Shown here piece after piece: positions 5,367-35,301 of a DNA stretch of 41,317 nucleotides. The DNA comes from Escherichia phage vB_EcoS_HSE2, in the sequence record MG252615.1. One strand, 5' to 3'. The notes under the pieces are model-generated. The model had not been told where the DNA came from and made no database searches. It worked only from the letters and a program-made list of their open reading frames with translations. The position numbers and the translations under genes were made by a program. Each line of letters begins with the position of its first letter. Positions within the stretch are counted from its first letter, which is position 1.

Positions 5367-5651
5367 CTAACTATAATAGCTCGCTATTAGGGTGTCAACC
5401 TGTTTAAACGAACCGACGACAAAAACATTCGCACCACGTTTACGCATCCGCTCGTGCTCGCGTAACTGGTGCGGGTCAGGCTTCGTGTTTTCGTCTTTCT
5501 TAACCTCGACGAACCAGACGATGCCGCCTGGGAGAATTGCCAGCAGGTCGGGGGCGCCGGAACGTCCTTCGTAGGAGAGCTTACGAACGAGGCCGCCAAT
5601 GGCCTCGAATCGCTCTTTTGCGTATTTCTGAATCTTGCCTTCCGGGGTCAT
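5367..5651 (-). CDS. VRR-NUC domain nuclease (PD-(D/E)XK fold)
   Basis: GAPDLL...VWFVEVKK motif pattern, about 94 aa. Confidence 0.6.
   Translation of the reverse strand: MTPEGKIQKYAKERFEAIGGLVRKLSYEGRSGAPDLLAILPGGIVWFVEVKKDENTKPDPHQLREHERMRKRGANVFVVGSFKQVDTLIASYYS
5370..5398 (-). promoter_or_regulatory. Sigma70-type early promoter with palindromic operator in spacer
   Basis: Minus strand TTGACA, 17-nt spacer, TATAGT; spacer carries AATAGC-TC-GCTATT (plus-strand 5375..5388). Confidence 0.6.
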
Positions 5652-9097: not shown

Positions 9098-9150
9098 CTT
9101 GATTTCTCGCTTTTAAGTTTACTCCGGGAACCGCCCGGCCAGTGATTAGA

Positions 9151-9179
9151 ACTATAATAGCTTACTATTCAGGTGTCAA
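9151..9179 (-). promoter_or_regulatory. Sigma70-type early promoter with palindromic operator in spacer
   Basis: TTGACA, 17-nt spacer, TATAGT on minus strand; spacer has AATAGC-TT-ACTATT (9156..9169). Confidence 0.6.
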
Positions 9180-9183
9180 CACT

Positions 9184-9675
9184 TTATTTGCCGTGGTTTT
9201 CGTGGAAACCGTACTTAACTTCTGCAGCCTTTCTCGCGGCTATTGCGTCGTCGATAGTTTCGAAACGTCCGAGATGAATTACTCGCTTCTTAACTTTTAT
9301 CTCAGCTCGCCATTTTCCGCGGCTTTTATCAAACCTAACACCCGTCACACCGGACGTGTTGTTGCGAGCTAAAGATAAATTACGGCTGTTCTCTTTTCGG
9401 GTTGTTTTCCTCAAATTAGAAAGAAGATTATTTTCTCGATTATGGTCGATATGGTCTATCTCCTCTCCGGGTTGAAGTTTATTTTCAGGCTTCATCATAT
9501 CCCATATAATTCTATGCGCCTGAAATGTCCTTCCGTGTAAACGGACGCACACATAACCCCAATTACGAACAGCAGCAACTTCGCTCCCGGCGGGCGCGCG
9601 ATTGCTGTTAGTTACGCGCCAATATAACTTACCAGTGTTGGTGTCATACCTAAAATAATCTCCCCATTTAATCAT
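9184..9675 (-). CDS. HNH homing endonuclease with C-terminal AP2 DNA-binding domain
   Basis: HNH motif IDHIDHNRENN...N; AP2-like GVTGVRFDKSRGKWRAEIKV...HLGRFETIDDAIAARKAAEVKYG; ATGA overlap with upstream gene. Confidence 0.75.
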   Translation of the reverse strand: MIKWGDYFRYDTNTGKLYWRVTNSNRAPAGSEVAAVRNWGYVCVRLHGRTFQAHRIIWDMMKPENKLQPGEEIDHIDHNRENNLLSNLRKTTRKENSRNLSLARNNTSGVTGVRFDKSRGKWRAEIKVKKRVIHLGRFETIDDAIAARKAAEVKYGFHENHGK

Positions 9676-11726: not shown

Positions 11727-11757
11727 TTGTTTCTCTCCTCTCGTTTGGTATGGGCTA

Positions 11758-11786
11758 ACTATAATAGCGAACTATTCACATGTCAA
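11758..11786 (-). promoter_or_regulatory. Sigma70-type early promoter with palindromic operator in spacer
   Basis: TTGACA, 17-nt spacer, TATAGT; spacer has AATAGC-GA-ACTATT (11763..11776). Confidence 0.6.
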
Positions 11787-11790
11787 TGGG

Positions 11791-11819
11791 TTTTTCTAAA
11801 ATAATTAATATGGTACTAT
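11791..11819 (+). promoter_or_regulatory. Putative promoter of the XRE regulator gene with operator-like palindrome
   Basis: -10 TACTAT at 11814..11819, weak A/T-rich -35; AATATG-GT-ACTATT at 11807..11820; divergent from the early promoter. Confidence 0.4.
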
Positions 11820-15153: not shown

Positions 15154-15222
15154 TAATAAGAATAAAGGCACAACACTACCTGAAGAATCACAACGGCAAC
15201 GTAACCATTTTCAATGAATCTC

Positions 15223-15251
15223 TTGCACACCCCAACATAATAGGTTACTAT
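15223..15251 (+). promoter_or_regulatory. Middle-class promoter (conserved 30-nt family) with operator palindrome
   Basis: TTGCAC-ACCCCAACATAATAGGT-TACTAT; palindrome AATAGG-TT-ACTATT (15239..15252). Confidence 0.6.
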
Positions 15252-15370
15252 TCACTTATCGAGGCGAGGCAGGGAGCCAACCTTTAATAAGGTCAGTAGC
15301 GGCGACGAGCATACGAAGAGTCGATAAGCCCGGTAAGCAGAACCTAAATTAACTAAGAGAGAAAAGCTGG

Positions 15371-16583: not shown

Positions 16584-16612
16584 TTGCACACTAAGATAGA
16601 ATAGGCTACTAT
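16584..16612 (+). promoter_or_regulatory. Middle-class promoter with operator palindrome
   Basis: TTGCAC, 17-nt spacer, TACTAT; AATAGG-CT-ACTATT (16600..16613). Confidence 0.6.
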
Positions 16613-16643
16613 TCATTTACACAAACGAGAAGAGAGACAGAAG

Positions 16644-18309: not shown

Positions 18310-18384
18310 ACCGTTATTAAGATAATTCTTACACGTGGTATCCTCCAGTTACCGCATACTTAATACGCACCTGGAGGATTCATC

Positions 18385-18693
18385 TTGGATAAATTTACTG
18401 AAACAGTGACAGGCTGGCTTCTCGCTGCCGCACTCGCCGGTGGGGTAATAGGACTAAGGCAACATAAGTCCGTTATTTCTGGCCCCATCGACGGCTTCTG
18501 CTTTATCGCAACTGGCTTCACCTGCGCCGTGTTTGGCGCACCTCTTGCCGCCCAATGGTTCGGCATTACGGGTGAGCGTGAGATAGCCGGCCTCGGATTT
18601 ATCATCGCTATTCTCTGGATGCCTATCTATTCCCGCCTCTCTGGTATCGTTGCCGGAGAATACATCGCACGCCGAGGGGGTACAGATGAATGA
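18385..18693 (+). CDS. Putative holin (three hydrophobic segments, TTG start)
   Basis: GGAGGA then 6 nt then TTG; three predicted TM-like stretches; just upstream of endolysin. Confidence 0.45.
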   Translation: MDKFTETVTGWLLAAALAGGVIGLRQHKSVISGPIDGFCFIATGFTCAVFGAPLAAQWFGITGEREIAGLGFIIAILWMPIYSRLSGIVAGEYIARRGGTDE

Positions 18694-18958
18694 GTTATTC
18701 TGGTTCGGCGGTATGCTGGCAATCGGAGGCACATCGCTGTTTAATGTGTACCACCCCAGCGTGGACGACGGGCTGTTTGGTCGGGTGCTCTATATCCTGA
18801 CCGCTATCGTCTGCGTCGCCGGATGCATCCACCTGTTACAGGGCAGCATGTCCCCGACGTTGCCTGAGACATTAATCACATTAGTTGCGCTGCGTCAGAT
18901 TCGCCAGGCGTGGCTGTCGTATGGAGGACATAAGCGTGTCTCGAAATATTTCAGATAA
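18686..18958 (+). CDS. Putative holin/antiholin membrane protein (two hydrophobic segments)
   Basis: GAGGGGG Shine-Dalgarno; hydrophobic; overlaps both neighbours. Confidence 0.45.
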   Translation: MNELFWFGGMLAIGGTSLFNVYHPSVDDGLFGRVLYILTAIVCVAGCIHLLQGSMSPTLPETLITLVALRQIRQAWLSYGGHKRVSKYFR

Positions 18959-19421
18959 TGGATTGCATTTTACCGCTGCGTTCGAGGGGTTCCGTGGAAC
19001 CGCGTATCGCGCGACACCGAACGAGAAGTACCTGACTATAGGCTATGGTCACTACGGACCTGACGTAACGCCCGGCAAGACCATCACCCCAGGGCAGGGT
19101 CTCCTGCTACTGAATCGCGATATGGCTAAGGCTGTAGCTGCGGTTGACGCTGCGGCGCACCATTCACTGACACAGGCGCAGTTCGACGCTGTTTGCGACC
19201 TGGTGTATAACGCGGGCGCCGGTGTGATTGCAGCTACCACCGGCACGGGTAAGGCACTGCGTTCTGGTGATACTGCAACACTGCGGGCTAAGCTGGCACT
19301 GTTCATCAACCAGAACGGCAAACCACTACTTGGCCTACGTCGCCGTACAGCCGGGCGGCTGGCATTGTTCAACGGTAAACCGTGGCAAGAGGCGGAGGCT
19401 ATTGGGAGGGCCGTTAAATGA
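18936..19421 (+). CDS. Endolysin, T4-lysozyme-like (glycoside hydrolase family 24)
   Basis: Catalytic region FEGFRG..Y...T.GYGH characteristic of phage lysozymes; GGAGGA before GTG 18936. Confidence 0.8.
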   Translation: MSRNISDNGLHFTAAFEGFRGTAYRATPNEKYLTIGYGHYGPDVTPGKTITPGQGLLLLNRDMAKAVAAVDAAAHHSLTQAQFDAVCDLVYNAGAGVIAATTGTGKALRSGDTATLRAKLALFINQNGKPLLGLRRRTAGRLALFNGKPWQEAEAIGRAVK

Positions 19422-19498
19422 CAGAGTTTGACTTCATTTTCCTGGCTATTGGAGCTGGTGCGATTTGGGGTGTGATTGACGCTCTCCGTAAAGGTTGA
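19418..19498 (+). CDS. Tiny hydrophobic peptide (26 aa) overlapping endolysin stop
   Basis: Verified by hand: MTEFDFIFLAIGAGAIWGVIDALRKG; ATGA overlap. Confidence 0.3.
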   Translation: MTEFDFIFLAIGAGAIWGVIDALRKG

Positions 19499-19562
19499 CA
19501 CCTAAGACTAATCCGACGATACTTAAATCACCTCCTGTTCCATCCCTCTGCTCTCCAGTTTT

Positions 19563-19594
19563 ATCCCGGCCCTGACCCAGCCGGGATTTTTTTT
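19563..19594 (+). terminator. Rho-independent terminator after the lysis genes
   Basis: Stem ATCCCGGC/GCCGGGAT followed by an 8-T run. Confidence 0.75.
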
Positions 19595-19616
19595 ATCTAT
19601 TTTCTGTAATGACTAG

Positions 19617-19645
19617 TTGACTATTACCTACGACCCTACTATATT
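19617..19645 (+). promoter_or_regulatory. Sigma70-type promoter for the small-gene chain
   Basis: TTGACT, 17 nt, TATATT. Confidence 0.55.
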
Positions 19646-19678
19646 TACTTCATAGACAACGAGAACGGAGTAGAGAAG

Positions 19679-19828
19679 ATGAAAATCACAGATATCGAAG
19701 CATTCAAAGACGCACAACTGATGGCTCGCATCGCCGTTAGTAACCTGAGCAACAGTATTCCAGCGGACGCGTTCTGGTTCGCTGCGATGCAGACACTAAA
19801 AGCAGCTTATGCAGGAGAGAAGAAATGA
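19679..19828 (+). CDS. Hypothetical small protein (49 aa)
   Basis: Codon-by-codon check; ATGA coupling to next ORF. Confidence 0.4.
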   Translation: MKITDIEAFKDAQLMARIAVSNLSNSIPADAFWFAAMQTLKAAYAGEKK

Positions 19829-19977
19829 CAGTCTATGTCGTAGAAGGGCGTAACGAATATGAAGACCCCGAGGTATTGGGTGTGTTCGGTGCCGAGAAAT
19901 CGGCGAAGCACTTTGTTGACATGGAACAGGGCACTTACGACTTTTTCTCAGTTACAGAATGGGAGGTACAACAATGA
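19825..19977 (+). CDS. Hypothetical small protein (50 aa)
   Basis: Codon-by-codon check; ATGA coupling. Confidence 0.4.
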   Translation: MTVYVVEGRNEYEDPEVLGVFGAEKSAKHFVDMEQGTYDFFSVTEWEVQQ

Positions 19978-20132
19978 GTGAACACGGTGAAGTAAGTCAA
20001 CCATTACGAGTAGGGCGTAAAGTCAGTCACACCCCGTTCCCGACACGCGAGGAACTGATGAAACGTAACAGTTTCCCCGGGCCGGACAAGAACAAGTATC
20101 TCAATCGCATGTGGGGAGAGCGTAAAGAATGA
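19974..20132 (+). CDS. Hypothetical small protein (52 aa)
   Basis: ATGA coupling. Confidence 0.4.
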   Translation: MSEHGEVSQPLRVGRKVSHTPFPTREELMKRNSFPGPDKNKYLNRMWGERKE

Positions 20133-20302
20133 CTAACAACGAATATGAGAAAGCATGCGTCGAATCCGCGACCGGTGAATCTGAAATAGCGTGGATTGAC
20201 GCCAACATCGAGCACTACCTACGGCAAGTAGACATCCTTATGGAACGACGCCGTGAACTGATTAACCGCATCAACCTGAACAAAGGTGATACTAATGCCT
20301 AA
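20129..20302 (+). CDS. Hypothetical small protein (57 aa)
   Basis: ATGA coupling. Confidence 0.4.
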   Translation: MTNNEYEKACVESATGESEIAWIDANIEHYLRQVDILMERRRELINRINLNKGDTNA

Positions 20303-20534
20303 AATCACAATCGCGTCACTCGAGCGCCGTATTATGGTGCTTGAGTCAGAGAAACAGACGTTAGGCGGGCAACTGTCAATTAACGGTGAGTTTCAACTGG
20401 AGGCGTTTAAGTTGTTGCTTGAGCGCATGAAAGCGGACGAAAAGCCTTGCGTACATGACTACTACCTACATGTGGTTGGTGGACTACGTAGAGCAACGTG
20501 CATTAAGTGCGGTGAAACGTATGGGGTCGCCTGA
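20295..20534 (+). CDS. Hypothetical coiled-coil protein with CxxC...C.KC zinc ribbon (79 aa)
   Basis: ORF track; overlapping start. Confidence 0.4.
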   Translation: MPKITIASLERRIMVLESEKQTLGGQLSINGEFQLEAFKLLLERMKADEKPCVHDYYLHVVGGLRRATCIKCGETYGVA

Positions 20535-20703
20535 GCCAGTAGTTATCGATGGCGTCCTGTGGAAACCTTACTCGGTTAACCACATCGACGCCGACGGGAA
20601 GAAGTTCAGCTTCTACATTTTTGCAATTAGCCGTGAGCACGCCGCCTGTGTGGTAGATGATATACGAGAAACGGCGTGGCTTGGTGATGAGATAGTGGGG
20701 TGA
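20521..20703 (+). CDS. Hypothetical small protein (60 aa)
   Basis: ORF track; start chosen at internal ATG. Confidence 0.35.
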   Translation: MGSPEPVVIDGVLWKPYSVNHIDADGKKFSFYIFAISREHAACVVDDIRETAWLGDEIVG

Positions 20704-20705
20704 GT

Positions 20706-20876
20706 ATGTTCAGTGACATTAACGCAGCAATCGAAGAAGCAATCTGGCGTCGCTACAACGGCGAGCAGCAACGGCACTTTTGCCTTGTGCAACGTGGGAA
20801 CATGATTGCCGTAGTGCAGGACCGCGATAACAAATATCCGAATGCGATGTGGACAACGAGGAATTTCTTAGGATGA
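20706..20876 (+). CDS. Hypothetical small protein (56 aa)
   Basis: Hand-translated; ATGA coupling to next. Confidence 0.35.
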   Translation: MFSDINAAIEEAIWRRYNGEQQRHFCLVQRGNMIAVVQDRDNKYPNAMWTTRNFLG

Positions 20877-21109
20877 TTACCAGCATTCCGAACCTGATTA
20901 AAGAATTTGGCACGATGGCGGAGACATGCCGACAAACCGGCATCAACGAAATGACGATTGCGAAGTACAGCAAAGACGTTGACTGCGAGCGCCACGTAAT
21001 TTATAACAACCGTCTTATGACGCACGTTAAGACAAGCCCGGTGTTATTCACGCGCCGGGGCATCACTAAAACTGAGCAACGTATTGCTAAAGAGGAGAGT
21101 GGGGAATGA
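20873..21109 (+). CDS. Hypothetical protein with HTH-like segment (78 aa)
   Basis: AETCRQTGINEMTIAKYSKD resembles a helix-turn-helix. Confidence 0.4.
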   Translation: MITSIPNLIKEFGTMAETCRQTGINEMTIAKYSKDVDCERHVIYNNRLMTHVKTSPVLFTRRGITKTEQRIAKEESGE

Positions 21110-21255
21110 TTGAATTTGATGATGTTTTATTTGAGGAATACCGCGGAACGGTGTTTTTGACTGTGATGTACGGTGTTTACTCAAAGTCCTTTAACGGGTT
21201 TTCGAAAGCAGATTGCATAAATCAATTACTGCAATGGGTGGTAAGCCGAAAATAG
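21106..21255 (+). CDS. Hypothetical small protein (49 aa)
   Basis: Hand-translated; ATGA coupling; followed by terminator. Confidence 0.35.
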   Translation: MIEFDDVLFEEYRGTVFLTVMYGVYSKSFNGFSKADCINQLLQWVVSRK

Positions 21256-21264
21256 CCACACCAC

Positions 21265-21287
21265 AAGCCCTCTACGGAGGGCTTTTC
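21265..21287 (+). terminator. Rho-independent terminator
   Basis: Stem AAGCCCTC/GAGGGCTT, loop TACG, then TTTT. Confidence 0.65.
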
Positions 21288-21382
21288 TGTACATCCCGCC
21301 CAATTCCCTTATATAATCCCTTTAGACGCGTAGGGCGCGTCTGGTGCGCTCTGATGGTCAGACGCATATGCAAGGGGATTCT

Positions 21383-21928
21383 ATGAAGCTGAAACTTAAG
21401 CAGCCATCGCCAGAGGTGGTGCAAGCTGCACATGAAGAAGCTGTTAGCGCAAACCGTCGCCGTAAACGACCGCGCGGCAAACAGAGTCTTTATCAATCAT
21501 CCCGTAATTCCGCCGCGTTGTGGGACCCGGGCTATTGCGATGCATTAATCAAGTTCTTCGACCGCACGTCATGGGAACTTGTGCCTACATCTAAGGGTGA
21601 CGAACGTCCGCTGATTCAGGATAAACCGCCGTCACTGGCCCGCTTCGCCTTGCACATCGGCGTCACTATCCCGATTATTAAGCTGTGGCTGCGTGAGATT
21701 CCCGCATTTGCCGAAGCCTATGAAACAGCGCAGGCACTTGAAGAGGCATACTTCACCGAGACAGGCGCGGCGGGTATCTCTGCTACGTTTGCCGCAGCTA
21801 AGCTAGGCCTTAGCAAAGAGAAACCAGTTGAATCCACCGAAGAAACAGCACCGACTGAGATTGTTTTCAGTGTTGCAGAGCCTGTAGGTAAAATCGTAAC
21901 AACGAATATGGGCGAGGTAGAGGAATGA
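21383..21928 (+). CDS. Putative terminase small subunit
   Basis: Immediately upstream of, and overlapping, the large terminase; AAGGGGA Shine-Dalgarno; basic N-terminal region. Confidence 0.5.
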   Translation: MKLKLKQPSPEVVQAAHEEAVSANRRRKRPRGKQSLYQSSRNSAALWDPGYCDALIKFFDRTSWELVPTSKGDERPLIQDKPPSLARFALHIGVTIPIIKLWLREIPAFAEAYETAQALEEAYFTETGAAGISATFAAAKLGLSKEKPVESTEETAPTEIVFSVAEPVGKIVTTNMGEVEE

Positions 21929-23175
21929 GTATTCAGCTATCGGCCCCGCAGGCATTGTTCCTGAATTGTGATAACAAGTACAAGGCCTACGTCGGCGGCT
22001 TCGGAAGTGGCAAGACATTTGTTGGCTGCCTTGACCTGCTTACGTTTATGCTCAAGCACCCAAGTACGCGCCTGGGCTACTTCGGCCCGACCTATCCCGC
22101 CATCCGTGACATCTTCTACCCAACATTCGAGGAAGCGGCTAACCTGCTCGGCCTTGATGTGCTGGTTAAATCCGGCGACAAAGAGGTTGTGGTTACGCGC
22201 GGTAAGACTGTGCTCGGGACCGTTATCTGCCGTTCGATGGATAACCCGGGGTCTATCGTTGGTTTCAAAATCGCTGCGGCAGTCGTCGATGAGCTGGACG
22301 TATTGAGCCGTGAAAAAGCTGAACTGGCGTGGAACAAAATTGTGGCCCGTATGCGTCTGGTTATCCCCGGCGTAACTAACCACATCTCTGTCACCACGAC
22401 ACCGGAAGGGTTCAAGTTCGTCTATGCCAAGTTCAAAGAGAACCCGACGCCGAGTTACTCGATGGTGCAGGCTTCTACACACGAGAACGCGCGATTCCTG
22501 CCGCCTGACTACATTAGCTCACTGACCGAGACTTACCCCGCGCAACTGATTAACGCGTACCTGAACGGTGAGTTCGTTAACCTGACATCCGGCAGCGTGT
22601 ATTATGCGTATGACCGTCGCAAGCACCGCAGCAAAGAGACAATTCAACCGGGCGATACACTGTACATCGGGCAGGACTTCAACGTTACGAAGAACGCCAG
22701 CGCCGTGTATGTGCAACGTAAAGACGGCTGGCACGCGGTGGCAGAACTGAAAGGCCTGTTCGATACGCCGGACACCGTGCGCGTAATTACAGAGAAGTGG
22801 AAGTCACAAGGCCACCGCATCGTCGTTTACCCGGATGCCAGCGGCAAGAACCGCAAGACTAACTCGGCGTCAATCTCTGATATTGCGTTACTACAGCAGG
22901 CAGGGTTTGATGTTCGCGCTAAATCTGCCAACCCCCCGGTTAAAGACCGTGTTTTAGCGGTGAATACCGCGCTGGAAAAAGGTAAGCTGTGGATTAACGA
23001 CCACTTATGCCCTGAGATAGCGAAGACGCTGGAACAGCAGGCATACGACGATAACGGAGAGCCAGCTAAAGACGGCGTCATTGACCATATGGCGGATGCT
23101 CTCGGCTATCCTGTAGTTTACGAGATGCCGGTGGTTAAACCAGTAATCAACATCCCGGTGACTTTCGCACTTTAA
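21925..23175 (+). CDS. terL: Terminase large subunit
   Basis: Walker A GGFGSGKT, Walker B VVDELD, C-terminal nuclease-like acidic residues. Confidence 0.85.
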   Translation: MSIQLSAPQALFLNCDNKYKAYVGGFGSGKTFVGCLDLLTFMLKHPSTRLGYFGPTYPAIRDIFYPTFEEAANLLGLDVLVKSGDKEVVVTRGKTVLGTVICRSMDNPGSIVGFKIAAAVVDELDVLSREKAELAWNKIVARMRLVIPGVTNHISVTTTPEGFKFVYAKFKENPTPSYSMVQASTHENARFLPPDYISSLTETYPAQLINAYLNGEFVNLTSGSVYYAYDRRKHRSKETIQPGDTLYIGQDFNVTKNASAVYVQRKDGWHAVAELKGLFDTPDTVRVITEKWKSQGHRIVVYPDASGKNRKTNSASISDIALLQQAGFDVRAKSANPPVKDRVLAVNTALEKGKLWINDHLCPEIAKTLEQQAYDDNGEPAKDGVIDHMADALGYPVVYEMPVVKPVINIPVTFAL

Positions 23176-23186
23176 GAGGACAACAA

Positions 23187-24680
23187 ATGGTTTCCGCAAA
23201 CATTAACGCAGGGCAAGGGCAGAACGTTAAAACCCGCCACCGCCAGTACGAAGAGTATTTCCCTAAGTGGCAGAAGGTGCGACATGCGCTTTCTGGCGAC
23301 CTGACATCGTATCTACGTGACGTCGGTAAGAATGAGCCGGACCCGGTTTACGGTCGCCAGCGTCAGGCTGAATACGAAGCGGGGGCAATTTGCTACAACT
23401 TCACCAAGCGAACGCTTTCAGGCATGGTCGGCAGCGTAATGCGCAAAGACCCCGAGATGATTATTCCGTCTCAGATGGAATACCTGACCACTAACTGTGA
23501 CGGGTCGGGCGTTGGCCTGTGGCAGCACGCACAGGATACTCTGTATGAGATTGATGCTGTTGGTCGCGGTGGTTTGCTGGTTGACGCCCCCGCGGTAGAA
23601 GTAGCTACCATGGCAGAGCAAAACGAGGGTTTACTAAACCCAACAATCGCTTTCTACACCGCAGAGAACATCATCAACTGGCGTCTCCAGCGCGTCGGGT
23701 CTGTTAATCGTGTGGTTATGGTTGTATTGCGTGAGGAATACGAGTACACCGATGGCGCGGATGAGTTCAGCCCCAACTACGGCGAGCAATACCGAGTCCT
23801 TGATATTTTCGAAGGCCAGTATCGCCAGCGTCTGTACCGCTTTAACCAGAAAGGTGCACTGATGGAAGGTGGCTATATCGAAATATTCCCGAAACTCGGT
23901 AATATTCCGGTCGGGGTGATTCCGTTCACATTCATTGGTGCAGGGAATAACGACTCAACCCCTGACGATGCACCTTTGCTGCCGTTGGCTGAACTAAACA
24001 TAGGACATTTCCGCAACAGCGCAGACAATGAGGAGTCCAGTTTCGTTGTAGGTCAGCCAACTCTGTTCATCGCCCCGGGTGAGAACATGAGCATGGAACA
24101 GTGGAAAGAAGCCAACCCACACGGCGTGCGCATGGGGTCGCGTTCAGGCCATAACATTGGTTACGGCGGCAATGCGTTTCTGGTCCAGGCCGGTGAGAAC
24201 AACCTAGCCAAGCAGAACATGTTGGATAAAGAGAACCAGGCAATCCAGATTGGTGCACAGCTTATTACCCCGACGCAGCAAATCACCGCGGAATCGGCAC
24301 GCCTGCAACGTGGTGCCGACACGTCCGTTATGGCGACAATTGCACGTAACGTAAGCATGGCGTATACCGATGCGCTGAAGTGGGTTGCTGGTATGCTTGG
24401 GCTTAGTGACGGCACTGAAATTGAGTTCAAACTGAACATGGAGTTCTTCCTGCAACCAATGACCGCCCAGGACCGCGCTCAGTGGATGGCGGACATTAAC
24501 GCCGGCTTGCTACCCGCCACCGCTTATTATGCTGCGTTGCGTAAGGCCGGTGTAACTGACTGGACCGACGAGGATATTCAGAACGCTATCGAAGACGCGC
24601 CGCTGCCGTTAGGTGCAAATACTCAGGTAGCGGGGGAGATTCCGCCGTCGGCGCAGCAACAAGATACCATTCAGCGGTAA
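23187..24680 (+). CDS. Portal protein
   Basis: About 497 aa directly after terL; conserved gene order. Confidence 0.7.
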   Translation: MVSANINAGQGQNVKTRHRQYEEYFPKWQKVRHALSGDLTSYLRDVGKNEPDPVYGRQRQAEYEAGAICYNFTKRTLSGMVGSVMRKDPEMIIPSQMEYLTTNCDGSGVGLWQHAQDTLYEIDAVGRGGLLVDAPAVEVATMAEQNEGLLNPTIAFYTAENIINWRLQRVGSVNRVVMVVLREEYEYTDGADEFSPNYGEQYRVLDIFEGQYRQRLYRFNQKGALMEGGYIEIFPKLGNIPVGVIPFTFIGAGNNDSTPDDAPLLPLAELNIGHFRNSADNEESSFVVGQPTLFIAPGENMSMEQWKEANPHGVRMGSRSGHNIGYGGNAFLVQAGENNLAKQNMLDKENQAIQIGAQLITPTQQITAESARLQRGADTSVMATIARNVSMAYTDALKWVAGMLGLSDGTEIEFKLNMEFFLQPMTAQDRAQWMADINAGLLPATAYYAALRKAGVTDWTDEDIQNAIEDAPLPLGANTQVAGEIPPSAQQQDTIQR

Positions 24681-24688
24681 GTTCACAT

Positions 24689-24712
24689 ATAGCCCCGAAA
24701 GGGGCTTTCTTA
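24689..24712 (+). terminator. Hairpin terminator/attenuator after portal
   Basis: Stem AGCCCC/GGGGCT with GAAA loop, then TTCTT. Confidence 0.5.
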
Positions 24713-24716
24713 TAGT

Positions 24717-25793
24717 ATGCTATTAACTTTAGCGCCACAGGGTTTATCTATGAGCTTACTTACATCCCTAATCAGCCACCAGATTTGGCTGCAACGCACC
24801 GCATCCGGCGAAGTGAAAGACCTCGCACCGTTCGTCCAGGAGATGCGGGACGAAATAAAACGGCAGGTGCTGTTATTTGGCGACGACGGGCGAAGCACCG
24901 CGCGACTGAATAAACTGTTACGCGACCTCGAAGAAGCACTGGCAGGACTTACCGGTGACTGGCAAACAAAACTGACAGAAGACCTTAAGGAACTGGTGGC
25001 ATATGAGGCTGAGTGGAACGTAAAGACGCTGACGGCTAACGTTAACGCGGAATTTGTTACGCCTACCGCAGAACAGGTGTGGGCCGCTGCCGAGTTTCAA
25101 CCCTTATCGTTAAGCGACAAACCTGTCGACTTCACCAAGCTGATGTCTGGCTGGGGTGAAACCGAAGTCGCGCGCCTTGTAACCGGCGTTAAGATGGGCT
25201 TCGTACAAGGCCAAACCACACGGCAGATTGTTAAGAATGTCGTAGGCGCTGGTGGGCTGGCGGACATTTCAGAACGCAACGCGGCTACAGTAATCCGCAC
25301 TGCGCTGTCCCACGTATCCAACGAAGCCCGCAACGAGACGTACCGCCAGAACGACGACATCATCGAGAAATACGAATGGGTGTCAACTCTGGACAGCCGT
25401 ACAAGCACGATTTGCAGAGCCAGGGACGGGATGACGTGGGAAATTGGTAAAGGGCCAATGCCCCCCGCCCATCCGAATTGTCGAAGTACCACTGCACCAG
25501 TAATCAGTTCCGAGTTCGACTTCCTCGATAAAGGCGCAAAACGCGCGGCTAAGGGCGCAGAAGGCGGTACTCAGGTAAGCGCAGACACCACTTACTACGA
25601 GTTCCTGAAACAACAACCAGCATGGTTTCAGGATGAAGCACTCGGCCCTGTTCGCGGTAAGATTTTCCGTAACAGCGGTATATCGCCGGAAGAGTTTCGC
25701 GTAATATCTGTAGATGGTTTCGGGAATCCACTGACACTTAAGCAGATGGCGGAACTCGATAAACGTGTTGCTGAATATCTGAAAGGGGATTAA
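24717..25793 (+). CDS. Head morphogenesis protein (Mu F / SPP1 gp7-like)
   Basis: Conserved DSRTS..C...HPNCR segment typical of this family; start may be the internal ATG at 24750. Confidence 0.65.
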   Translation: MLLTLAPQGLSMSLLTSLISHQIWLQRTASGEVKDLAPFVQEMRDEIKRQVLLFGDDGRSTARLNKLLRDLEEALAGLTGDWQTKLTEDLKELVAYEAEWNVKTLTANVNAEFVTPTAEQVWAAAEFQPLSLSDKPVDFTKLMSGWGETEVARLVTGVKMGFVQGQTTRQIVKNVVGAGGLADISERNAATVIRTALSHVSNEARNETYRQNDDIIEKYEWVSTLDSRTSTICRARDGMTWEIGKGPMPPAHPNCRSTTAPVISSEFDFLDKGAKRAAKGAEGGTQVSADTTYYEFLKQQPAWFQDEALGPVRGKIFRNSGISPEEFRVISVDGFGNPLTLKQMAELDKRVAEYLKGD

Positions 25794-26254
25794 TGATGGG
25801 CTTTTTCAAAGTAACTGATGTACCGTCACGCCGCGTAGTCCAGTACGCCCGCGTGTCTGGTTCTGGCGAGAACGTGGTGTTTATTGAAGATGAAAGTGTA
25901 CTGGGATCACCTGTAGACGATATGCCGTTTGCAGACAAGACCGGTATCGCGCTACCAGCGGCGGGTATGCTTTATGAGATTCCGTATCTGGCGGACGCTG
26001 GCGACGTGTATTTCTCTGTGCAGCCGCAGGGCGCTGAACTGGCGGACGGCAGCGCAACCATCACTGTAGACGTTAAGGCTGGCAAAGCACCATATGCGTT
26101 GACCTGGTACAAAGACGGGAAGGAAGTGGTAAACGCCCCGGAAGAGGCTCTGTCTCTGACGGTTAACGCGGTGGGTGAATACTTCGTTAAAGTCACCGAT
26201 GCCGATGGGGTAGAGGCCGTCAGTAAAGCGGCGAAGGTTACTAAGCCGGAATGA
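25793..26254 (+). CDS. Structural protein with C-terminal Ig-like domain
   Basis: C-terminal YALTWYKDGKEV...EYFVKVTDADG resembles bacterial Ig-like folds. Confidence 0.45.
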   Translation: MMGFFKVTDVPSRRVVQYARVSGSGENVVFIEDESVLGSPVDDMPFADKTGIALPAAGMLYEIPYLADAGDVYFSVQPQGAELADGSATITVDVKAGKAPYALTWYKDGKEVVNAPEEALSLTVNAVGEYFVKVTDADGVEAVSKAAKVTKPE

Positions 26255-26255
26255 T

Positions 26256-26285
26256 AAAAAGCCCCGCTATGGGGCTTTATTTTTA
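26256..26285. terminator. Bidirectional intrinsic terminator
   Basis: Stem AAAAGCCCC/GGGGCTTTT, loop GCTAT, A-run before and T-run after. Confidence 0.7.
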
Positions 26286-26354
26286 TATGAACATCGCGGT
26301 GATAGCCGCAGCCGATACCCACAAAACAAAATAAAACATCACACTATTTGTCAT
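26283..26354 (-). CDS. Hydrophobic peptide (23 aa), third gene of lipoprotein cassette
   Basis: Verified by hand: MTNSVMFYFVLWVSAAAITAMFI; ATGA overlap with lipoprotein stop. Confidence 0.25.
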   Translation of the reverse strand: MTNSVMFYFVLWVSAAAITAMFI

Positions 26355-26695
26355 TTGCATTTCTCGTCGTATGTTTGTTGTAACTGCGACAGACGATTAC
26401 CGGCTGTCATCTCGTCCATAGAAGGCCCGGCGCCCGTGTCCATAAAGAACAGCGGAACAATCAGGAATGCGCCTGTAACACCGAGTACAACGTTAGTACC
26501 TATTTGCTTATTAACACGGTGCGTAGCGTTGGCTTGAGCTTGTTTTGTCGTGGCGATTCTCGATAGTAACTGATTACATGTTGCCGTTGTATCCCCTGCC
26601 TGATAAACCTGTAAAGCCGGGTCTGGCAACGACCTTACGCAACCACTCAAACAAACGGCTACAACACCCGCTACTGCTAATTTAATATATTTCAT
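26351..26695 (-). CDS. Lipoprotein (114 aa) in a moron cassette; candidate superinfection-exclusion / receptor-masking factor
   Basis: Signal peptide with lipobox L-S-G-C; opposite strand to flanking head genes; own promoter and terminator. Confidence 0.55.
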   Translation of the reverse strand: MKYIKLAVAGVVAVCLSGCVRSLPDPALQVYQAGDTTATCNQLLSRIATTKQAQANATHRVNKQIGTNVVLGVTGAFLIVPLFFMDTGAGPSMDEMTAGNRLSQLQQTYDEKCK

Positions 26696-26793
26696 AGTTC
26701 ACCATTACCCGTGTCAATTTCACCAATACCACTACAAGCCCAAAGAAACATCACCGCATCAACTGCAATTACTACTGAAATAACGACTAACAT
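26692..26793 (-). CDS. Small transmembrane peptide (33 aa), first gene of lipoprotein cassette
   Basis: Verified by hand: MLVVISVVIAVDAVMFLWACSGIGEIDTGNGEL; GAGGAGG Shine-Dalgarno; ATGA overlap. Confidence 0.3.
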   Translation of the reverse strand: MLVVISVVIAVDAVMFLWACSGIGEIDTGNGEL

Positions 26794-26820
26794 GACGGCC
26801 TCCTCGGTTCGATAGAATGA

Positions 26821-26849
26821 ATAGTACCCTATTATATTGGGGTGCGCAA
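26821..26849 (-). promoter_or_regulatory. Middle-class promoter driving the lipoprotein cassette
   Basis: Minus strand TTGCGC-ACCCCAATATAATAGGG-TACTAT; 30-nt core identical to the promoter at 35165..35193. Confidence 0.6.
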
Positions 26850-26915
26850 ACTATTTGTTTATGTATTCCAGTTATTCCACCAAATTGTAAATATTGGAAT
26901 AAACTATTCGAATAG

Positions 26916-26944
26916 TTGACTTTTCACCAAAAATGTGCTAAGCT
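26916..26944 (+). promoter_or_regulatory. Sigma70-type promoter preceded by 16-bp palindrome AACTATTCGAATAGTT
   Basis: TTGACT, 17 nt, TAAGCT; palindrome at 26902..26917. Confidence 0.45.
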
Positions 26945-27150
26945 CCACCTGAGCTTGTGAAGTATGAACAAGCGACCGCGGCGTGGCAGGTAACGGAGCC
27001 GGACGTTAAGTCCGAGTGTAGTTACGCTGACGCGTTCGGAAGGGCCATACTCTATTGCTTGTGTAAAAAGTAACTGGTTTACTGAGATTACGCCGTTTCT
27101 ATGTTTAAATGATAAGGACTAGCGCCCCGCTTTATGGCGGGGCTTTACTT
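26945..27150 (+). ncRNA. Candidate small RNA or structured leader (about 200 nt) between promoter and terminator-like hairpin
   Basis: No ORF longer than 9 codons; starts after the 26916..26944 promoter and ends at hairpin 27124..27143 plus U-rich tail. Confidence 0.3.
27121..27150 (+). terminator. Terminator-like hairpin just upstream of the spanin RBS
   Basis: Stem GCCCCGC/GCGGGGC, loop TTTATG, then TTTACTTAT. Confidence 0.45.
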
Positions 27151-27167
27151 ATCGAGAAAGGAGAAAC

Positions 27168-27554
27168 ATGAATCTTAAAGCAACTGTCGTAGCGGGAGCA
27201 TGTTTCATCATCCTGGCTTACGCACACGGCATCTACCAGTACCGCAGCGGCTGGAACGAAGGCCGGGCGAATCTCGTTTCGCAGCAACAGCAGGAAGCAC
27301 AGGCTGAGTTAGCGAAGAAAACACAACGGCAGCAGCAGGACGAATCAAAGGCCGCAGCCGCTGGCAACGAAGGCAAGACGAAATCAGAGGTGATTACCCG
27401 TGAAGTCGTTAAGTACATTAAAACACCTGGCCGTAGCGTGTGCACTTTTGACGATGCTCGCGTCCTGCTCAAGTCCCGCGCCGTCGCAAACGCCAATTCC
27501 ATCCCCGGATACGACGATGATGCAGCCGCCGTGCAAACTGGCGCCGCCAAGTAG
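27168..27554 (+). CDS. i-spanin (Rz-like)
   Basis: N-terminal TM segment followed by Gln/Ala-rich coiled-coil periplasmic region; embedded lipoprotein ORF in +1 frame. Confidence 0.6.
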   Translation: MNLKATVVAGACFIILAYAHGIYQYRSGWNEGRANLVSQQQQEAQAELAKKTQRQQQDESKAAAAGNEGKTKSEVITREVVKYIKTPGRSVCTFDDARVLLKSRAVANANSIPGYDDDAAAVQTGAAK

Positions 27555-27663
27555 CGACGCGGACGAGGATTTGGCTATCGACGTTCAGAACGCCGAATGT
27601 GTGCGGCAACTGAGGCTGAAAGTGTTCATGCTGCAGGATTACGTGAGGAATATTCTGGAATAG
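27400..27663 (+). CDS. o-spanin (Rz1-like outer-membrane lipoprotein), overlapping Rz
   Basis: Lipobox L-A-S-C followed by Pro-rich mature region; starts inside Rz in another frame and extends beyond its stop. Confidence 0.55.
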   Translation: MKSLSTLKHLAVACALLTMLASCSSPAPSQTPIPSPDTTMMQPPCKLAPPSSDADEDLAIDVQNAECVRQLRLKVFMLQDYVRNILE

Positions 27664-27742
27664 TTGCCTTGCATGTTGGAATAATTTATTCTTGACATGT
27701 AAATCCGGGTGGCCCGGGTTCCAACGTCCAGGGGACATACTG

Positions 27743-28369
27743 ATGAGCGAAGAAGTGAAAGACGAAACTATCGAACAACAAGAGACTAAGACCACGTTTA
27801 CCAAAGAAGAAGTTGACGCGCTGGTATCCGGTCTTAAAGCTAACAACGAGAAACTCTTGTCTGAAAAGAAAGCTGCTGCCGCTGCCGCTAAAGAAGCCGC
27901 AGATGCGAAGCTGAAAGCCGAACAGGAACGCGCAAAACAGAACGGCGAACTTGAGGCATTCGAGAAAACGTTGCGCAGTCAGTATGAGCCAGTACTCGCC
28001 GAGAAAGACGGTAAGATTAGCAAAATGGCTGAGCGTATCCTCGGCGCAGAACGTAAATCAGTTATCAGCCAGTTGTCTGGCATGTTGATTGATGAGAGCG
28101 CAGCAGATATCATCGCTATGATGGTCAAGACCGAATTTGACGGCGATGACGTTGTGACCAAGTTCACAGGTGCAGACGGTAATGTCATCACCACCGACGC
28201 AGAGCAATTTAAAAAGTATCTGCGTGAGCACAAAGCATTTTCGCATCTGATTAAAGCAGATGCAGCAACCGGCGGCGGGGCTTCCGGTAACAAGAATTCT
28301 ACTGGCGGGGCCGGTGGTGCGGACGTAATCCAGCAAAAACTTAACGCCAAATACGGCAAACGAGGATAA
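27743..28369 (+). CDS. Scaffolding protein
   Basis: Ala/Lys/Glu-rich helical protein immediately upstream of major capsid gene; AGGGGA Shine-Dalgarno. Confidence 0.55.
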   Translation: MSEEVKDETIEQQETKTTFTKEEVDALVSGLKANNEKLLSEKKAAAAAAKEAADAKLKAEQERAKQNGELEAFEKTLRSQYEPVLAEKDGKISKMAERILGAERKSVISQLSGMLIDESAADIIAMMVKTEFDGDDVVTKFTGADGNVITTDAEQFKKYLREHKAFSHLIKADAATGGGASGNKNSTGGAGGADVIQQKLNAKYGKRG

Positions 28370-28375
28370 CAGAAT

Positions 28376-29344
28376 ATGTCTCTGTCAGATATGAAGGTTT
28401 ATAACGACGACATCGTCGGTACTACTATCGAACTTCTTGGCCAGAAAACTGACCAGTTTAACGCAGCCTCCGGTGGTGCAATTGTACTGTCTACCGCTTC
28501 ATGGCGCGGTGACTTCTCCCGTGAGTCTTTCTTTAACCAGATTGCCTCCGCTAAACGCCGCGTCGACCGTTACGCCGCTATCGCGTCTCAGGCAGCTACC
28601 GCGCTGACTCAGGGCGAGCATGTAGGCGTTAAAGTCGCTGGCGGCTTCGGACCGGTACTGTTCGAGCCTGCGCAAATGACCTGGCTTAACGAAGACCCGG
28701 CAAGCGCGATTCGTGCTATTTCCGAAGGCTTCTCTGACGCGCTGTTAGCTGACCAGCTTAACACTGCTGTTGGTGCCGCTGTTGCCGCGGTCTCCGGTCA
28801 GACAGCACTGGTTAACGATGTATCTGCATCCGCAGGCCTGTCTCTGAACGTGTTGAACAACAGCCACGCTAAATTCGGCGACCAGTCTCAGTTGCTGATT
28901 ACCGACATCATGACCGGCGCTGCTTACCACACTCTGGTGGACAAAGCGCTGACCAACGCAAACCAGTTGTTCGTTGCCGGTAACGTTATGGTTGTTGATG
29001 TCCTCGGTAAGCGTTATGTAATCTCCGACATCCCTGCACTATACGAAGCTGGTACCCCGAACAAGACTAAGGTCCTGTCCGTAGTTGCAAACGGAATCAT
29101 CGTAGATAATGCTTCTGACATTATCAGCAACATTGACACCAGCAACGGTAACACCCGCATCCAGACCACCTGGCAGGCGGACTACAGCTTCGGCCTGAAA
29201 CTGAAAGGCTATAGCTGGGATGTTACCAACGGCGGTAAATCTCCGCTGGATGCAGAACTGTTCACTGCGTCCAACTGGGACAAAGCTGTTGCCGAGAACA
29301 AGCACACCCTCGGTACTCTGGCAATCGCCGACGCAGACCTGTAA
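28376..29344 (+). CDS. Major capsid protein
   Basis: 322-aa ORF between scaffold and a strong terminator; position and size fit an HK97-fold capsid. Confidence 0.7.
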   Translation: MSLSDMKVYNDDIVGTTIELLGQKTDQFNAASGGAIVLSTASWRGDFSRESFFNQIASAKRRVDRYAAIASQAATALTQGEHVGVKVAGGFGPVLFEPAQMTWLNEDPASAIRAISEGFSDALLADQLNTAVGAAVAAVSGQTALVNDVSASAGLSLNVLNNSHAKFGDQSQLLITDIMTGAAYHTLVDKALTNANQLFVAGNVMVVDVLGKRYVISDIPALYEAGTPNKTKVLSVVANGIIVDNASDIISNIDTSNGNTRIQTTWQADYSFGLKLKGYSWDVTNGGKSPLDAELFTASNWDKAVAENKHTLGTLAIADADL

Positions 29345-35149: not shown

Positions 35150-35164
35150 TGTTGGTGTAAGTGA

Positions 35165-35193
35165 ATAGTACCCTATTATATTGGGGTGTGCAA
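35165..35193 (-). promoter_or_regulatory. Middle-class promoter driving the Imm/phosphoesterase/HNH cassette
   Basis: Minus strand TTGCAC-ACCCCAATATAATAGGG-TACTAT; transcription start only about 9 nt before the Imm ATG. Confidence 0.6.
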
Positions 35194-35301
35194 GTAATGT
35201 GATAGAATAATTTTGCGCCTAGTGTCGCACATGAAAAGCGGGTGGTTCCCGTCTGGCGCATTTACCATTAACCTGTAACCTCTTAACCAAAGGATTAAAG
35301 A

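Follow-up and report, generated by a model that had tools for sequence, protein, structure and literature searches.

Lysis genes of the window

The DNA analysed here, referred to as the window, is the whole 41,317-nucleotide stretch of Escherichia phage vB_EcoS_HSE2 (MG252615.1), which is a Kagunavirus (Guernseyvirinae). Its five lysis proteins, all covered by PHROG and/or Pfam matches, are encoded in two places (Table 1). At the first, the class I-like product contains hydrophobic segments, and its homologue in phage Shashou is annotated as "holin/antiholin class I, three TMDs". A hairpin at 18335-18383 (-15.3 kcal/mol) holds the SD of this gene in its 3' arm. The class II-like product has a hydrophobic segment at 30-48, and its homologues in phiSD1 and Shashou are annotated as holin. 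Its ORF opens at TTG 18650 and that of the endolysin at TTG 18885, with ATG 18686 and ATG 18921 as the likely starts. Hydropathy revealed no TM-like segment in the endolysin, indicating a soluble enzyme. A near-consensus promoter-like site (TTGACT-17-TATATT, 19617-19645) lies 3' of the terminator that follows. These matches bear out the preliminary description, which had placed holin-like genes and a GH24 endolysin at 18385-19421.

Table 1. Coordinates of the lysis genes and neighbouring features in the window.
Feature	Position	Strand	Evidence
Holin/antiholin, class I-like, 102 aa, TTG start	18385-18693	+	phrog_2359, E 3e-29
Second holin/antiholin, class II-like, 90 aa from ATG 18686	18686-18958	+	phrog_2508, E 6e-34
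Soluble GH24 endolysin, 166 aa from ATG 18921	18921-19421	+	Pfam PF00959 Phage_lysozyme, E 1e-26; phrog_33703/phrog_7
Intrinsic terminator after endolysin	19563-19594	+	8-bp stem, 9-nt loop, U8; -13.8 kcal/mol, z -3.8
Hoc-like/Ig-like head decoration protein, last of terminase-portal-MuF block	25793-26254	+	phrog_3945, E 1.6e-85
Bidirectional terminator-like hairpin between Hoc-like gene and minus-strand cassette	26258-26278	.	Terminator scan and fold
Accessory two-gene cassette (moron)	26351-26793	-	ORFs, lipobox, hydropathy; phrog_13472, function unknown
114-aa lipoprotein of cassette	26351-26695	-	Lipobox LSGC; second hydrophobic segment, residues 67-85
33-aa membrane peptide of cassette	26692-26793	-	ORF
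Repeated promoter-like element TTGCRC-17-TACTAT, aimed at lipoprotein cassette	26818-26849	-	Repeat families D4/I1/I2/I4
TTATTCC/GGAATAA direct and inverted repeats, upstream of spanin promoter	26864-26915	.	Kept in both sequence types
Promoter-like site TTGACT-17-TAAGCT with upstream TG (extended -10)	26917-26945	+	Sequence; invariant in type 1
Predicted structured leader, ~220 nt, upstream of i-spanin	26946-27167	+	MFE -78.8 kcal/mol, z -3.7
Extended 17-bp hairpin of leader	27111-27153	+	-23 kcal/mol, z -4.25
i-Spanin, 128 aa	27168-27554	+	Rz-like spanin phrog_2536, E 1.5e-54
o-Spanin, 87 aa, GTG start, +1 frame	27400-27663	+	phrog_5672, E 4.5e-30; phrog_1267, E 2e-18
Head scaffolding protein, downstream of spanins	27743-28369	+	phrog_206, E 1.4e-42; synteny with phiSD1, skrot, Shashou
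Major capsid protein, after scaffold gene	28376-29344		Synteny with phiSD1, skrot, Shashou

The second place lies 7,746 bp away, measured from the endolysin stop to the i-spanin start, with the Hoc-like gene (plus the minus-strand lipoprotein cassette) on one side and the scaffold gene on the other, as had been described. The i-spanin has an N-terminal TMD (KD hydropathy segment 1-19), two polyQ stretches and a single periplasmic Cys, and its AF2 model shows a helix at 3-64 with pLDDT 75-88 and low confidence in the C-terminal half. The homologue in Shashou carries an i-spanin annotation. The o-spanin gene has an SD, GAGGTG, 7 nt before its GTG start and overlaps the i-spanin gene by 155 nt, and its Pro-rich product carries the lipobox LASC (Cys23) together with Cys45 and Cys67. 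The i-spanin TMD, the three o-spanin cysteines and the overlap are common to nearly all of about 30 related contigs. Curated libraries other than PHROGs gave nothing significant for either protein; the Pfam match to DUF2514 had E 0.07, and in NCBIfam the i-spanin had no match and the o-spanin a sub-threshold one to LppU. The Pfam and PHROG scans yielded no significant match to lambda-type spanin families. In a lipoprotein-signal scan of the whole window, just two hits were credible, namely the o-spanin and the lipoprotein of the minus-strand cassette, and therefore a second spanin beside the endolysin, against which the earlier identification was to be checked, is absent.

An overlapped two-component spanin family named "Jersey" has been defined with Jersey, SETP3, SE2, K1G, K1H and K1ind1-3 as members and HK578/EP23 as more distant ones (Kongari et al. 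2018, PMC6139136). As in HSE2, the i-spanin of this family has an N-terminal TMD and two polyQ stretches, and the o-spanin starts within the i-spanin gene with the same 155-nt overlap, lipobox, Pro-rich linker, Cys45 and Cys67, under PHROG 2536/5672. We found no substantive difference between the HSE2 pair and this family. Judging from these sequence features, 27168-27663 is an overlapped i-spanin/o-spanin pair and one more member of the Jersey family, in agreement with the Rz/Rz1-type pair proposed earlier. We found no record in the literature of complementation tests of Jersey-family spanins.

Accessory slot, promoter-like site and predicted leader upstream of the spanins

The slot directly upstream of the spanins differs in content among related genomes. 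HSE2 and Golestan carry the lipoprotein cassette, Shashou has no moron, and in skrot the slot is filled by a 179-aa minus-strand ORF. The cassette is at least 99% alike in 10 phage records (nine Escherichia and one Shigella), and Aeromonas phages encode distant homologues. In Shashou, a terminator is annotated at the position equivalent to 26258-26278. The promoter-like repeat aimed at the cassette, with copies at 15222, 16584, 26818 and 35158, can be read as an early-type promoter.

Between this repeat and the i-spanin gene lie further putative control elements. The TTATTCC/GGAATAA repeats form a candidate regulator-binding site, and the arrangement TTGGAATAA-N3-ATTC occurs twice in the window against 0 expected. 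The promoter-like site that follows has a weak -10 hexamer (3/6) and fell under the threshold of our consensus scanner, which left it uncalled. However, its geometry is retained in two diverged sequence types (TAGAYT-17-TGnTACGCT in type 2), and on this ground we keep the proposed spanin promoter as a promoter-like site.

The leader is probably non-coding; a small ORF within it has a frame-shifting indel and lacks third-position bias. It matched no Rfam family, and a tRNA search gave none. Its consensus helices are present in both sequence types, some with compensatory changes. The hairpin that had been described in the leader is well supported by covariation, with 100% of cells paired, three double-change pairs and 0/500 shuffles reaching its score. 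It has a GC-rich top (27124-27143) and ends 5 nt short of the i-spanin SD. We rejected a classic terminator at this hairpin, since its potential U-tract is taken up in base pairing and type 2 lacks a U-tract.

By our estimate from the alignment, the two types of promoter and leader are about 65-70% alike. Kagunavirus and 65 Salmonella phage records carry type 1; records with type 2 number 264 from Salmonella and 3 from Escherichia. In comparison with Jerseyvirus skrot, no stretch of the genome is better conserved than the type-1 leader (0.95-0.965; median 0.74), whereas in type-2 phages the conservation of the leader is not above that of its flanks.

A functional analogy can be drawn with the lambda late unit pR' - 6S RNA - tR', in which a promoter with -35 TTGACT is followed by a leader of roughly 200 nt with a GC-rich hairpin at its end, and then by the lysis genes heading the late structural genes. 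The HSE2 arrangement resembles it in promoter, leader length, GC-rich hairpin and the placing of lysis genes before late structural genes. On the other hand, a conserved U-tract is absent, the hairpin tail is base-paired and there is no sequence similarity, and we did not assign the leader to the lambda class for these reasons. Among the annotated genes of the inspected relatives, no antiterminator is annotated.

Distribution of the split layout

The preliminary description treated the separation of the lysis genes as an unusual layout. This view does not hold for the lineage, in which the split is the norm already published for the phage group. The genome announcement of Escherichia phage Schulenberg states that the spanins are separate from the holin and endolysin genes (PMC6763661), and the same split is seen in Escherichia phage VB_EcoS-Golestan (ORF66-68 and ORF7/8; PMC7203180), in Salmonella phage SeF1 (Gp_009/010 and Gp_063-065; PMC9409062), and in the GenBank annotations of phiSD1, skrot and Shashou (MK931440). 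As in HSE2, Schulenberg, Golestan, Shashou and SeF1 have the holin pair and endolysin among small genes upstream of the terminase, and the spanins several kb off, flanked by the Ig-like head gene and the gene for the scaffold. The spanins lie between a head-morphogenesis/decoration gene and the scaffold gene in 10/10 inspected genomes, which include Klebsiella phage VLCpiS11a, Salmonella phage TS6 and Dhillonvirus Oekolampad. A homologue of the HSE2 i-spanin is encoded in 634 phage records; the i-spanins of other Kagunavirus-like records are 91-99% identical to it. HSE2 shares this placement as an inherited trait with the inspected Guernseyvirinae and a Dhillonvirus, and it is not special to HSE2.

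Among better-known phages, lambda Rz/Rz1 and P2 LysB/LysC share the two-component spanin logic with HSE2, and P2 also shares the overlapped gene architecture, whereas Rz1 is wholly embedded in Rz. Unlike in HSE2, a single cassette in lambda and in P2 carries the holin, the endolysin and, right behind them, the spanins. In T7, the 18.5/18.7 pair lies between two terminase genes with the RNase III site R18.5 before it. The T4 spanin genes pseT.3/pseT.2 are likewise away from the holin and endolysin genes (PMC6139136). T4 and T7 thus resemble HSE2 in that the spanins do not adjoin the holin and endolysin, but they have other spanin families and architectures (separated in T4) and are other phage types with their own transcription programmes.

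Lysis in two gene sets and its timing

We consider it very likely that HSE2 has the ordinary three-component lysis system of Kagunavirus/Jersey-like siphophages, with genes in two places and timing set by the holin. The genes for the two holin-type membrane proteins and the endolysin end a rightward small-gene block and are closed as a unit by the strong terminator, and the two-component spanin lies in the head module, right after the promoter-like site and leader and right before the scaffold and major capsid genes. The following steps are inferred from the established spanin model, and HSE2 itself provides the gene identities. Late in infection, the i-spanin would enter the inner membrane, and the o-spanin would receive its lipid and be sorted to the outer membrane. 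The C-termini of the two would meet across the periplasm in complexes that are inert within the peptidoglycan mesh. Fusion of both membranes by the spanins would follow once the holin has triggered and the endolysin has degraded the peptidoglycan. The position of the spanin genes would then decide only the carrying transcript, probably the scaffold/capsid late transcript.

A different view concerns the origin of this arrangement, namely that the spanins, promoter and leader are a mobile, moron-like cassette inserted in the head module and still exchanged horizontally. We regard this as possible but unlikely. Both promoter/leader types cross genus lines, the conservation peak in type 1 and its lack in type 2 fit recombination, a variable moron slot lies directly upstream, and one relative (L030) has a different, non-overlapped o-spanin. 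However, the spanin position is identical in all inspected Guernseyvirinae and a Dhillonvirus, and therefore any insertion must be old and present exchange would concern sequence within a fixed slot. This view explains history and not function, and it is compatible with the ordinary lysis system.

The preliminary description went further and took the separation to imply independent timing of outer-membrane disruption, with a transcript for the spanins that is timed on its own. The holin-endolysin set and the spanin set probably do belong to different transcripts, because a strong terminator follows the endolysin and a bidirectional one precedes the spanins; this transcript structure is based on sequence motifs. 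These terminators, the apparent promoter with possible regulator-binding repeats, and the structured leader whose base adjoins the i-spanin SD all speak for separate timing. Nevertheless, we consider it improbable. According to the published model, spanin complexes build up while caught in the peptidoglycan meshwork and become active only after the endolysin has removed it (PMC6139136), so that the time of synthesis alone schedules no rupture and the holin sets the timing wherever the spanin genes sit. In coarse RNA-seq of a Kagunavirus, the lysozyme gene also shares a single "middle" class with the flanking head genes (PMC12645636). In Dhillonvirus Oekolampad, the homologous i-spanin gene begins inside the last part of the minor capsid gene without an intergenic region, and the pair looks like ordinary co-expressed late genes. 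Strong control by the leader, if imposed, could in principle leave the spanins in limiting supply at some stage.

It is extremely improbable that 27168-27663 encodes proteins for head assembly or another accessory structural role instead of spanins, since the position in the head module and the lack of significant Pfam or NCBIfam matches stand against the TMD, the lipobox, the overlapped +1 frame, the conserved periplasmic cysteines, the strong PHROG spanin matches, the membership in a curated spanin family (PMC6139136) and a genome with no other spanin candidate in the lipoprotein-signal scan. Of the features described here, the conserved promoter-like site and the leader with its covariation-supported hairpin are the sole part with modest novelty.

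Identity of the lysis genes

The holin genes and GH24 endolysin that the preliminary description placed at 18385..19421 are all present, as judged from PHROG and Pfam (PF00959) matches. Small membrane proteins of holin type, recognized by their PHROG families and hydrophobic segments, adjoin the endolysin. Both families occur side by side in this lineage, and their homologues carry annotations of three and two TMDs (class I / class II). The first holin gene has a TTG start, and its SD (GGAGG) lies inside the 3' arm of a hairpin at ~18335-18387 (-15.3 kcal/mol, z -2.1). This combination suggests that translation of the first holin/antiholin may be held down. The endolysin scored 94 bits against the PF00959 profile, for which the curated cut-off is 22.3. 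No signal-anchor-release or TM segment was found at its N-terminus (no hydrophobic 19-mer >= 1.6), and since the N-terminus is not hydrophobic, we consider that the endolysin is a soluble, holin-dependent enzyme. When the translation was read by eye against the canonical E-x8-D/C-x5-T triad, Glu22 and the Thr of TIGYGH were present, whereas the position expected for Asp is occupied by Ala31 and the spacing differs. The strong terminator past the endolysin was overlooked by the scanner because of its 9-nt loop.

Features of the split lysis genes and of the region ahead of the scaffold gene
Feature	Coordinates	Strand	Description
First holin	18385-18693	+	PHROG holin family, E 3e-29
Second holin	18650-18958	+	PHROG holin family, E 6e-34; probable true start ATG 18686
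Endolysin	18885-19421	+	PF00959 lysozyme, E 1e-26; probable true start ATG 18921
Strong terminator	19563-19594		140 nt past endolysin; 8-bp stem, 9-nt loop, U8 tail
Promoter-like site	within 19563-19645		Near-consensus TTGACT-17-TATATT, 3' of the strong terminator
Hoc-like (Ig-like) gene	25793-26254		
Bidirectional terminator	26258-26278		After Hoc-like gene
Accessory cassette	26351-26793	-	33-aa membrane peptide and 114-aa lipoprotein (26351-26695; phrog_13472)
Direct and inverted repeats	26864-26915		TTATTCC/GGAATAA, upstream of the putative spanin promoter
Promoter-like site	26917-26945	+	TTGACT-17-TAAGCT, with upstream TG
Leader			~220 nt, 3' of the promoter-like site, before i-spanin
i-spanin	27168-27554		
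o-spanin	27400-27663		
Scaffold gene	27743-28369		

The i-spanin matches the Rz-like spanin family phrog_2536 from end to end (E 1.5e-54) and has an N-terminal TM anchor (residues 1-19, score 1.65 in a Kyte-Doolittle 19-residue window). Two polyQ stretches, QQQQ (39-42) and QQQ (54-56), were read directly. The o-spanin matches phrog_5672 (E 4.5e-30) and also phrog_1267, and it starts at GTG 27400, 7 nt after the SD GAGGTG. Its lipoprotein signal, MKSLSTLKHLAVACALLTMLAS followed by C23 and SS, contains the lipobox LASC and is without Asp at +2 (outer-membrane sorting). The mature part is short and Pro-rich, and its Cys45 and Cys67 also recur across ~27 related contigs. The two genes overlap by 155 nt (27400-27554), with the o-spanin in another frame and extending beyond the i-spanin end. 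The Jersey overlapped spanin family of Kongari et al. (2018) includes Jersey, SETP3, SE2, K1G, K1H, K1ind1-3 and others (PMC6139136). As described there, the two genes overlap by 155 bp, the i-spanin carries a pair of polyQ stretches, and the o-spanin has Cys45 and Cys67 throughout; each of these published traits is matched by the window. In a tblastn search, i-spanin homologues were found in 634 phage records, including the K1 phages, SETP13 and wksl3.

Accordingly, an Rz/Rz1-type spanin pair at 27168..27663 is borne out by the PHROG matches, TMD, lipobox, 155-nt overlap and Cys45/Cys67. On this sequence evidence the gene identities are secure and the function is predicted. Structure prediction, proposed as a check, covered the i-spanin. 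Its AF2 single-sequence model gave one continuous helix over residues 3-64 at moderate confidence (pLDDT 75-88), but the C-terminal half was unreliable, with residues 72-128 mostly at pLDDT < 50. The preliminary description had also raised the prospect of another spanin adjacent to the endolysin. When every ORF was scanned for lipoprotein signals, at each possible start codon and on both strands of the 41 kb, no spanin or u-spanin candidate came up there; just two lipobox ORFs were credible, the o-spanin and the minus-strand 114-aa lipoprotein. The latter was weighed as a u-spanin. A unimolecular spanin of the T1 gp11 type combines an outer-membrane lipoprotein signal with a C-terminal TMD, whereas the 114-aa protein has a lipobox but its second hydrophobic segment is internal (67-85 of 114). 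It also lies on the opposite strand and has an accessory distribution, and we rejected this assignment.

In several public records, the spanin pair appears with a truncated o-spanin or as 'hypothetical'. Truncated o-spanins of 47-48 aa are annotated in phiSD1 (gp60, 12751-12897 of L001), skrot (gp26, 4704-4847 of L002) and demigod (1270-1413 of L052). They begin at an internal Met, without signal peptide and lipobox. PHROG 5672 is itself only 47 positions long, and the consistent form of the o-spanin is 87 aa with a GTG start. The spanin finding is thus of practical use for annotation. A 'separated' family variant was seen in the related record L030 (IMGVR_UViG_3300045988_013393), where a type-1 leader precedes a 118-aa i-spanin and a different o-spanin overlapping by just 14 nt.

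Split gene order and lysis timing

The split arrangement is already known, published and standard for Guernseyvirinae. In Golestan, the holins and endolysin are ORF66-68 and the spanins are ORF7 and ORF8 (PMC7203180); in SeF1, the two gene sets are Gp_009/010 and Gp_063-065 (PMC9409062). In GenBank, phiSD1, skrot and Shashou are likewise annotated with spanins in the same slot. Ten genomes were inspected, including Salmonella phage TS6, the Dhillonvirus Oekolampad and Klebsiella phage VLCpiS11a, which is divergent (47% identity). In each, the spanins follow a head-morphogenesis (Mu F-like) or Ig-like gene and precede those for the scaffold and major capsid proteins. Oekolampad has no intergenic region at this point, since its i-spanin gene begins within the last bases of the minor capsid gene. 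Endolysin and spanins lie 7.75 kb apart in the window; in the two complete relatives the distance is 8.5 kb (skrot) and ~7.8 kb (Shashou, counted across linear record ends). Gene order is collinear between the window, the Kagunavirus Shashou and the Jerseyvirus skrot. By sequence comparison, the 10.4 kb around the split lysis genes shares 95.6% identity with Escherichia phage BUCT823 and 87-93% with phiSD1, the K1-capsule phages G, L and P AB-2017 and other Kagunavirus-like records. Because the slot is the same in the inspected genomes, we consider the split to be an inherited trait of these siphophages. The finding as posed matters little, since it restates published gene order and leaves the lysis-timing model unchanged. 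Phages of other lineages offer precedents. In T7, the spanin pair is located between terminase genes. The T4 spanins likewise are not near the holin and endolysin (PMC6139136).

The preliminary description took the separation to imply independent timing of outer-membrane disruption. Sequence signals do place the holin/endolysin genes and the spanins on different predicted transcripts: the strong terminator and near-consensus promoter-like site past the endolysin, and the bidirectional terminator past the Hoc-like gene. In the published spanin model, i-/o-spanin complexes build up within the peptidoglycan, and it is only after the endolysin has cleared this mesh that they are free to fuse inner and outer membrane (PMC6139136). 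The moment of outer-membrane rupture would then be dictated by holin triggering, and the spanins would need only to be present in time, which their place in front of the scaffold/capsid genes should secure. In a coarse Kagunavirus RNA-seq time course, the lysozyme, Mu F-like and capsid genes all belong to the 'middle' class (PMC12645636); that study does not name the spanins, and its supplements have no per-gene phage table with them. The claim of independent timing is unsupported because, in the published model, peptidoglycan removal gates the spanins and holin triggering sets the moment, and lysozyme and capsid genes share one RNA-seq class.

Promoter-like site and leader ahead of the spanins

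The promoter and leader are the most interesting item in the region and provide a modest, testable lead. The spanins had been credited with their own upstream promoter and leader hairpin, and this was correct, with a conserved promoter-like site and a covarying hairpin. The ~300 bp before the i-spanin ATG occur as two sequence types. Type 1, carried by the window, is found at 90-99% identity in 180 records of Escherichia and Salmonella phages. Type 2 stands at the corresponding position in 271 records, mostly of Salmonella phages, and we estimate from the alignment that it is ~65-70% like type 1. Its repeats and promoter geometry (TAGAYT-17-TGnTACGCT) are preserved, as are several blocks of sequence and the hairpin ahead of the SD.

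The hairpin at 27111-27153 (17 bp, -23 kcal/mol, z -4.25) abuts the i-spanin SD. In the alignment of both types, 11 of its pairs are retained with every cell paired, three pairs have changed on both sides, and one is found as CG, GC, AU and UA; the covariation score was reached by 0 of 500 shuffles. The closing helix of the leader 5' domain is also kept in both types, with one C-G to U-A change. One full-length fold for both types was rejected: alifold, run on each type separately, gave differing 5' domains, and the confidently shared structure is limited to the closing helix and the 3' hairpin. RNAalifold also proposes pairing of the leader 5' end with the SD region, which competes with the lower hairpin stem; this proposal comes from two lineages only and we distrust it.

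As a tentative and somewhat doubtful reading, the ~300 bp of repeats, extended -10 promoter and structured leader could be an undescribed cis-regulatory unit for the spanin-scaffold-capsid transcript. As a working model, the promoter would be a regulated late promoter, and the leader hairpin may act in processing, stability or translation control of the mRNA; in the wider reading, the promoter would also be factor-controlled, and the two allelic forms would have been exchanged between Kagunavirus and Jerseyvirus. In T7, an RNase III site precedes gene 18.5, which offers an analogy for the role of the hairpin; the lambda pR'-6S-tR' unit is similar to the promoter and leader in layout only. If such a unit exists, the supply of spanins and capsid protein would be controlled apart from holin/endolysin, with lysis timing still dependent on the holin. 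We came across no account of head and tail gene activation in Jersey-like phages, for which the promoter and leader are a concrete candidate as a late control region.

Conservation of the leader could also be read as pure purifying selection. Against skrot, the leader provides the three most conserved 200-nt windows genome-wide (0.95-0.965, median 0.74). Among type-2 phages, however, it is not conserved above its neighbours (0.90 vs 0.85-0.93), which weakens that reading. Therefore, the 95% cross-genus identity is better read as mosaicism, and the leader is likely to be a recombined or exchanged allele rather than a case of extreme constraint. A leader micropeptide is possible, and Shashou has a 36-aa CDS annotated here. 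A small protein gene (38-aa GTG ORF, 26957-27073) was nevertheless rejected on account of a frame-shifting indel between variants and the lack of a consistent start or SD; third-position bias was absent, though substitutions are very few. A classic intrinsic terminator at 27124-27143 has the expected GC-rich stem, which covaries, but was rejected since its U-tract tail UUUACUUAUC pairs with the upstream GAUAAG, and type 2 has UUAGCGUAU in place of the would-be U-tract. With the U-tract not conserved and the tail paired, we also rejected the hairpin as a member of the lambda tR' kind. None of 5,426 E. coli genomes contained a match to the leader, and a host origin was dismissed. The leader had no match in Rfam 15 at E up to 1.

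ARAGORN found no tRNA in the window. Some Jerseyvirus records carry a minus-strand 'tRNA-Ser' (ARAGORN: 'tRNA-SeC'), at 572-649 of demigod (L052) and 1145-1223 of the related record L042; it extends over the last part of the Hoc-like gene and the terminator behind it, and looks like a false positive.

TGGAATA/TTATTCC motifs occur at 26863-26909 and 27656-27697. The pattern TTGGAATAA-N3-ATTC has exactly two copies in the window, where 0 are expected, one ahead of the spanins and one ahead of the scaffold gene, each just upstream of a TTGAC(T/A) hexamer. It was rejected as a general late-promoter mark, given that there are only two copies and that skrot lacks both the second (27676) and the TTGACA beside it. 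The 84-nt spacer between o-spanin and scaffold gene, measured at L042 1997-2080 and given as the equivalent of window 27997-28080, is 100% identical in three type-2 Jerseyviruses. Ahead of the scaffold RBS, it holds a hairpin, CCGGG-NGG-CCCGG, that is conserved (window 27705-27717).

Lipoprotein cassette and repeated elements

The preliminary description set the spanins between a lipoprotein cassette and the scaffold gene, and every element that it named is present. The cassette is directed away from the spanins, with the bidirectional terminator at its end. Near-identical copies are found in just 10 records of related phages (nine Escherichia, one Shigella), its homologues in Aeromonas phages are 27-34% identical, and other relatives have other genes in the slot. 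The cassette is an accessory moron and not part of the lysis system; our guess is that it could act in superinfection exclusion. An element of ~35 nt, which we read as promoter-like (TTGCRC-17-TACTAT), occurs in four copies, at 15222-15258 and 16584-16617 on the plus strand and at 26818-26849 and 35158-35194 on the minus strand. We take each copy to head a putative early or accessory gene block, the cassette included.

A 71-nt direct repeat is identical at both window ends (1-71 and 41247-41317). We read it as an overlap left by the assembly of a whole, circularly permuted or closed phage genome, whose actual length would be about 41,246 bp. A 39-nt repeat has three copies (5367-5405, 9148-9186 and 11755-11793); its minus strand reads TTGACA-17-TATAGT, and it is likely a repeated promoter for the leftward replication genes.
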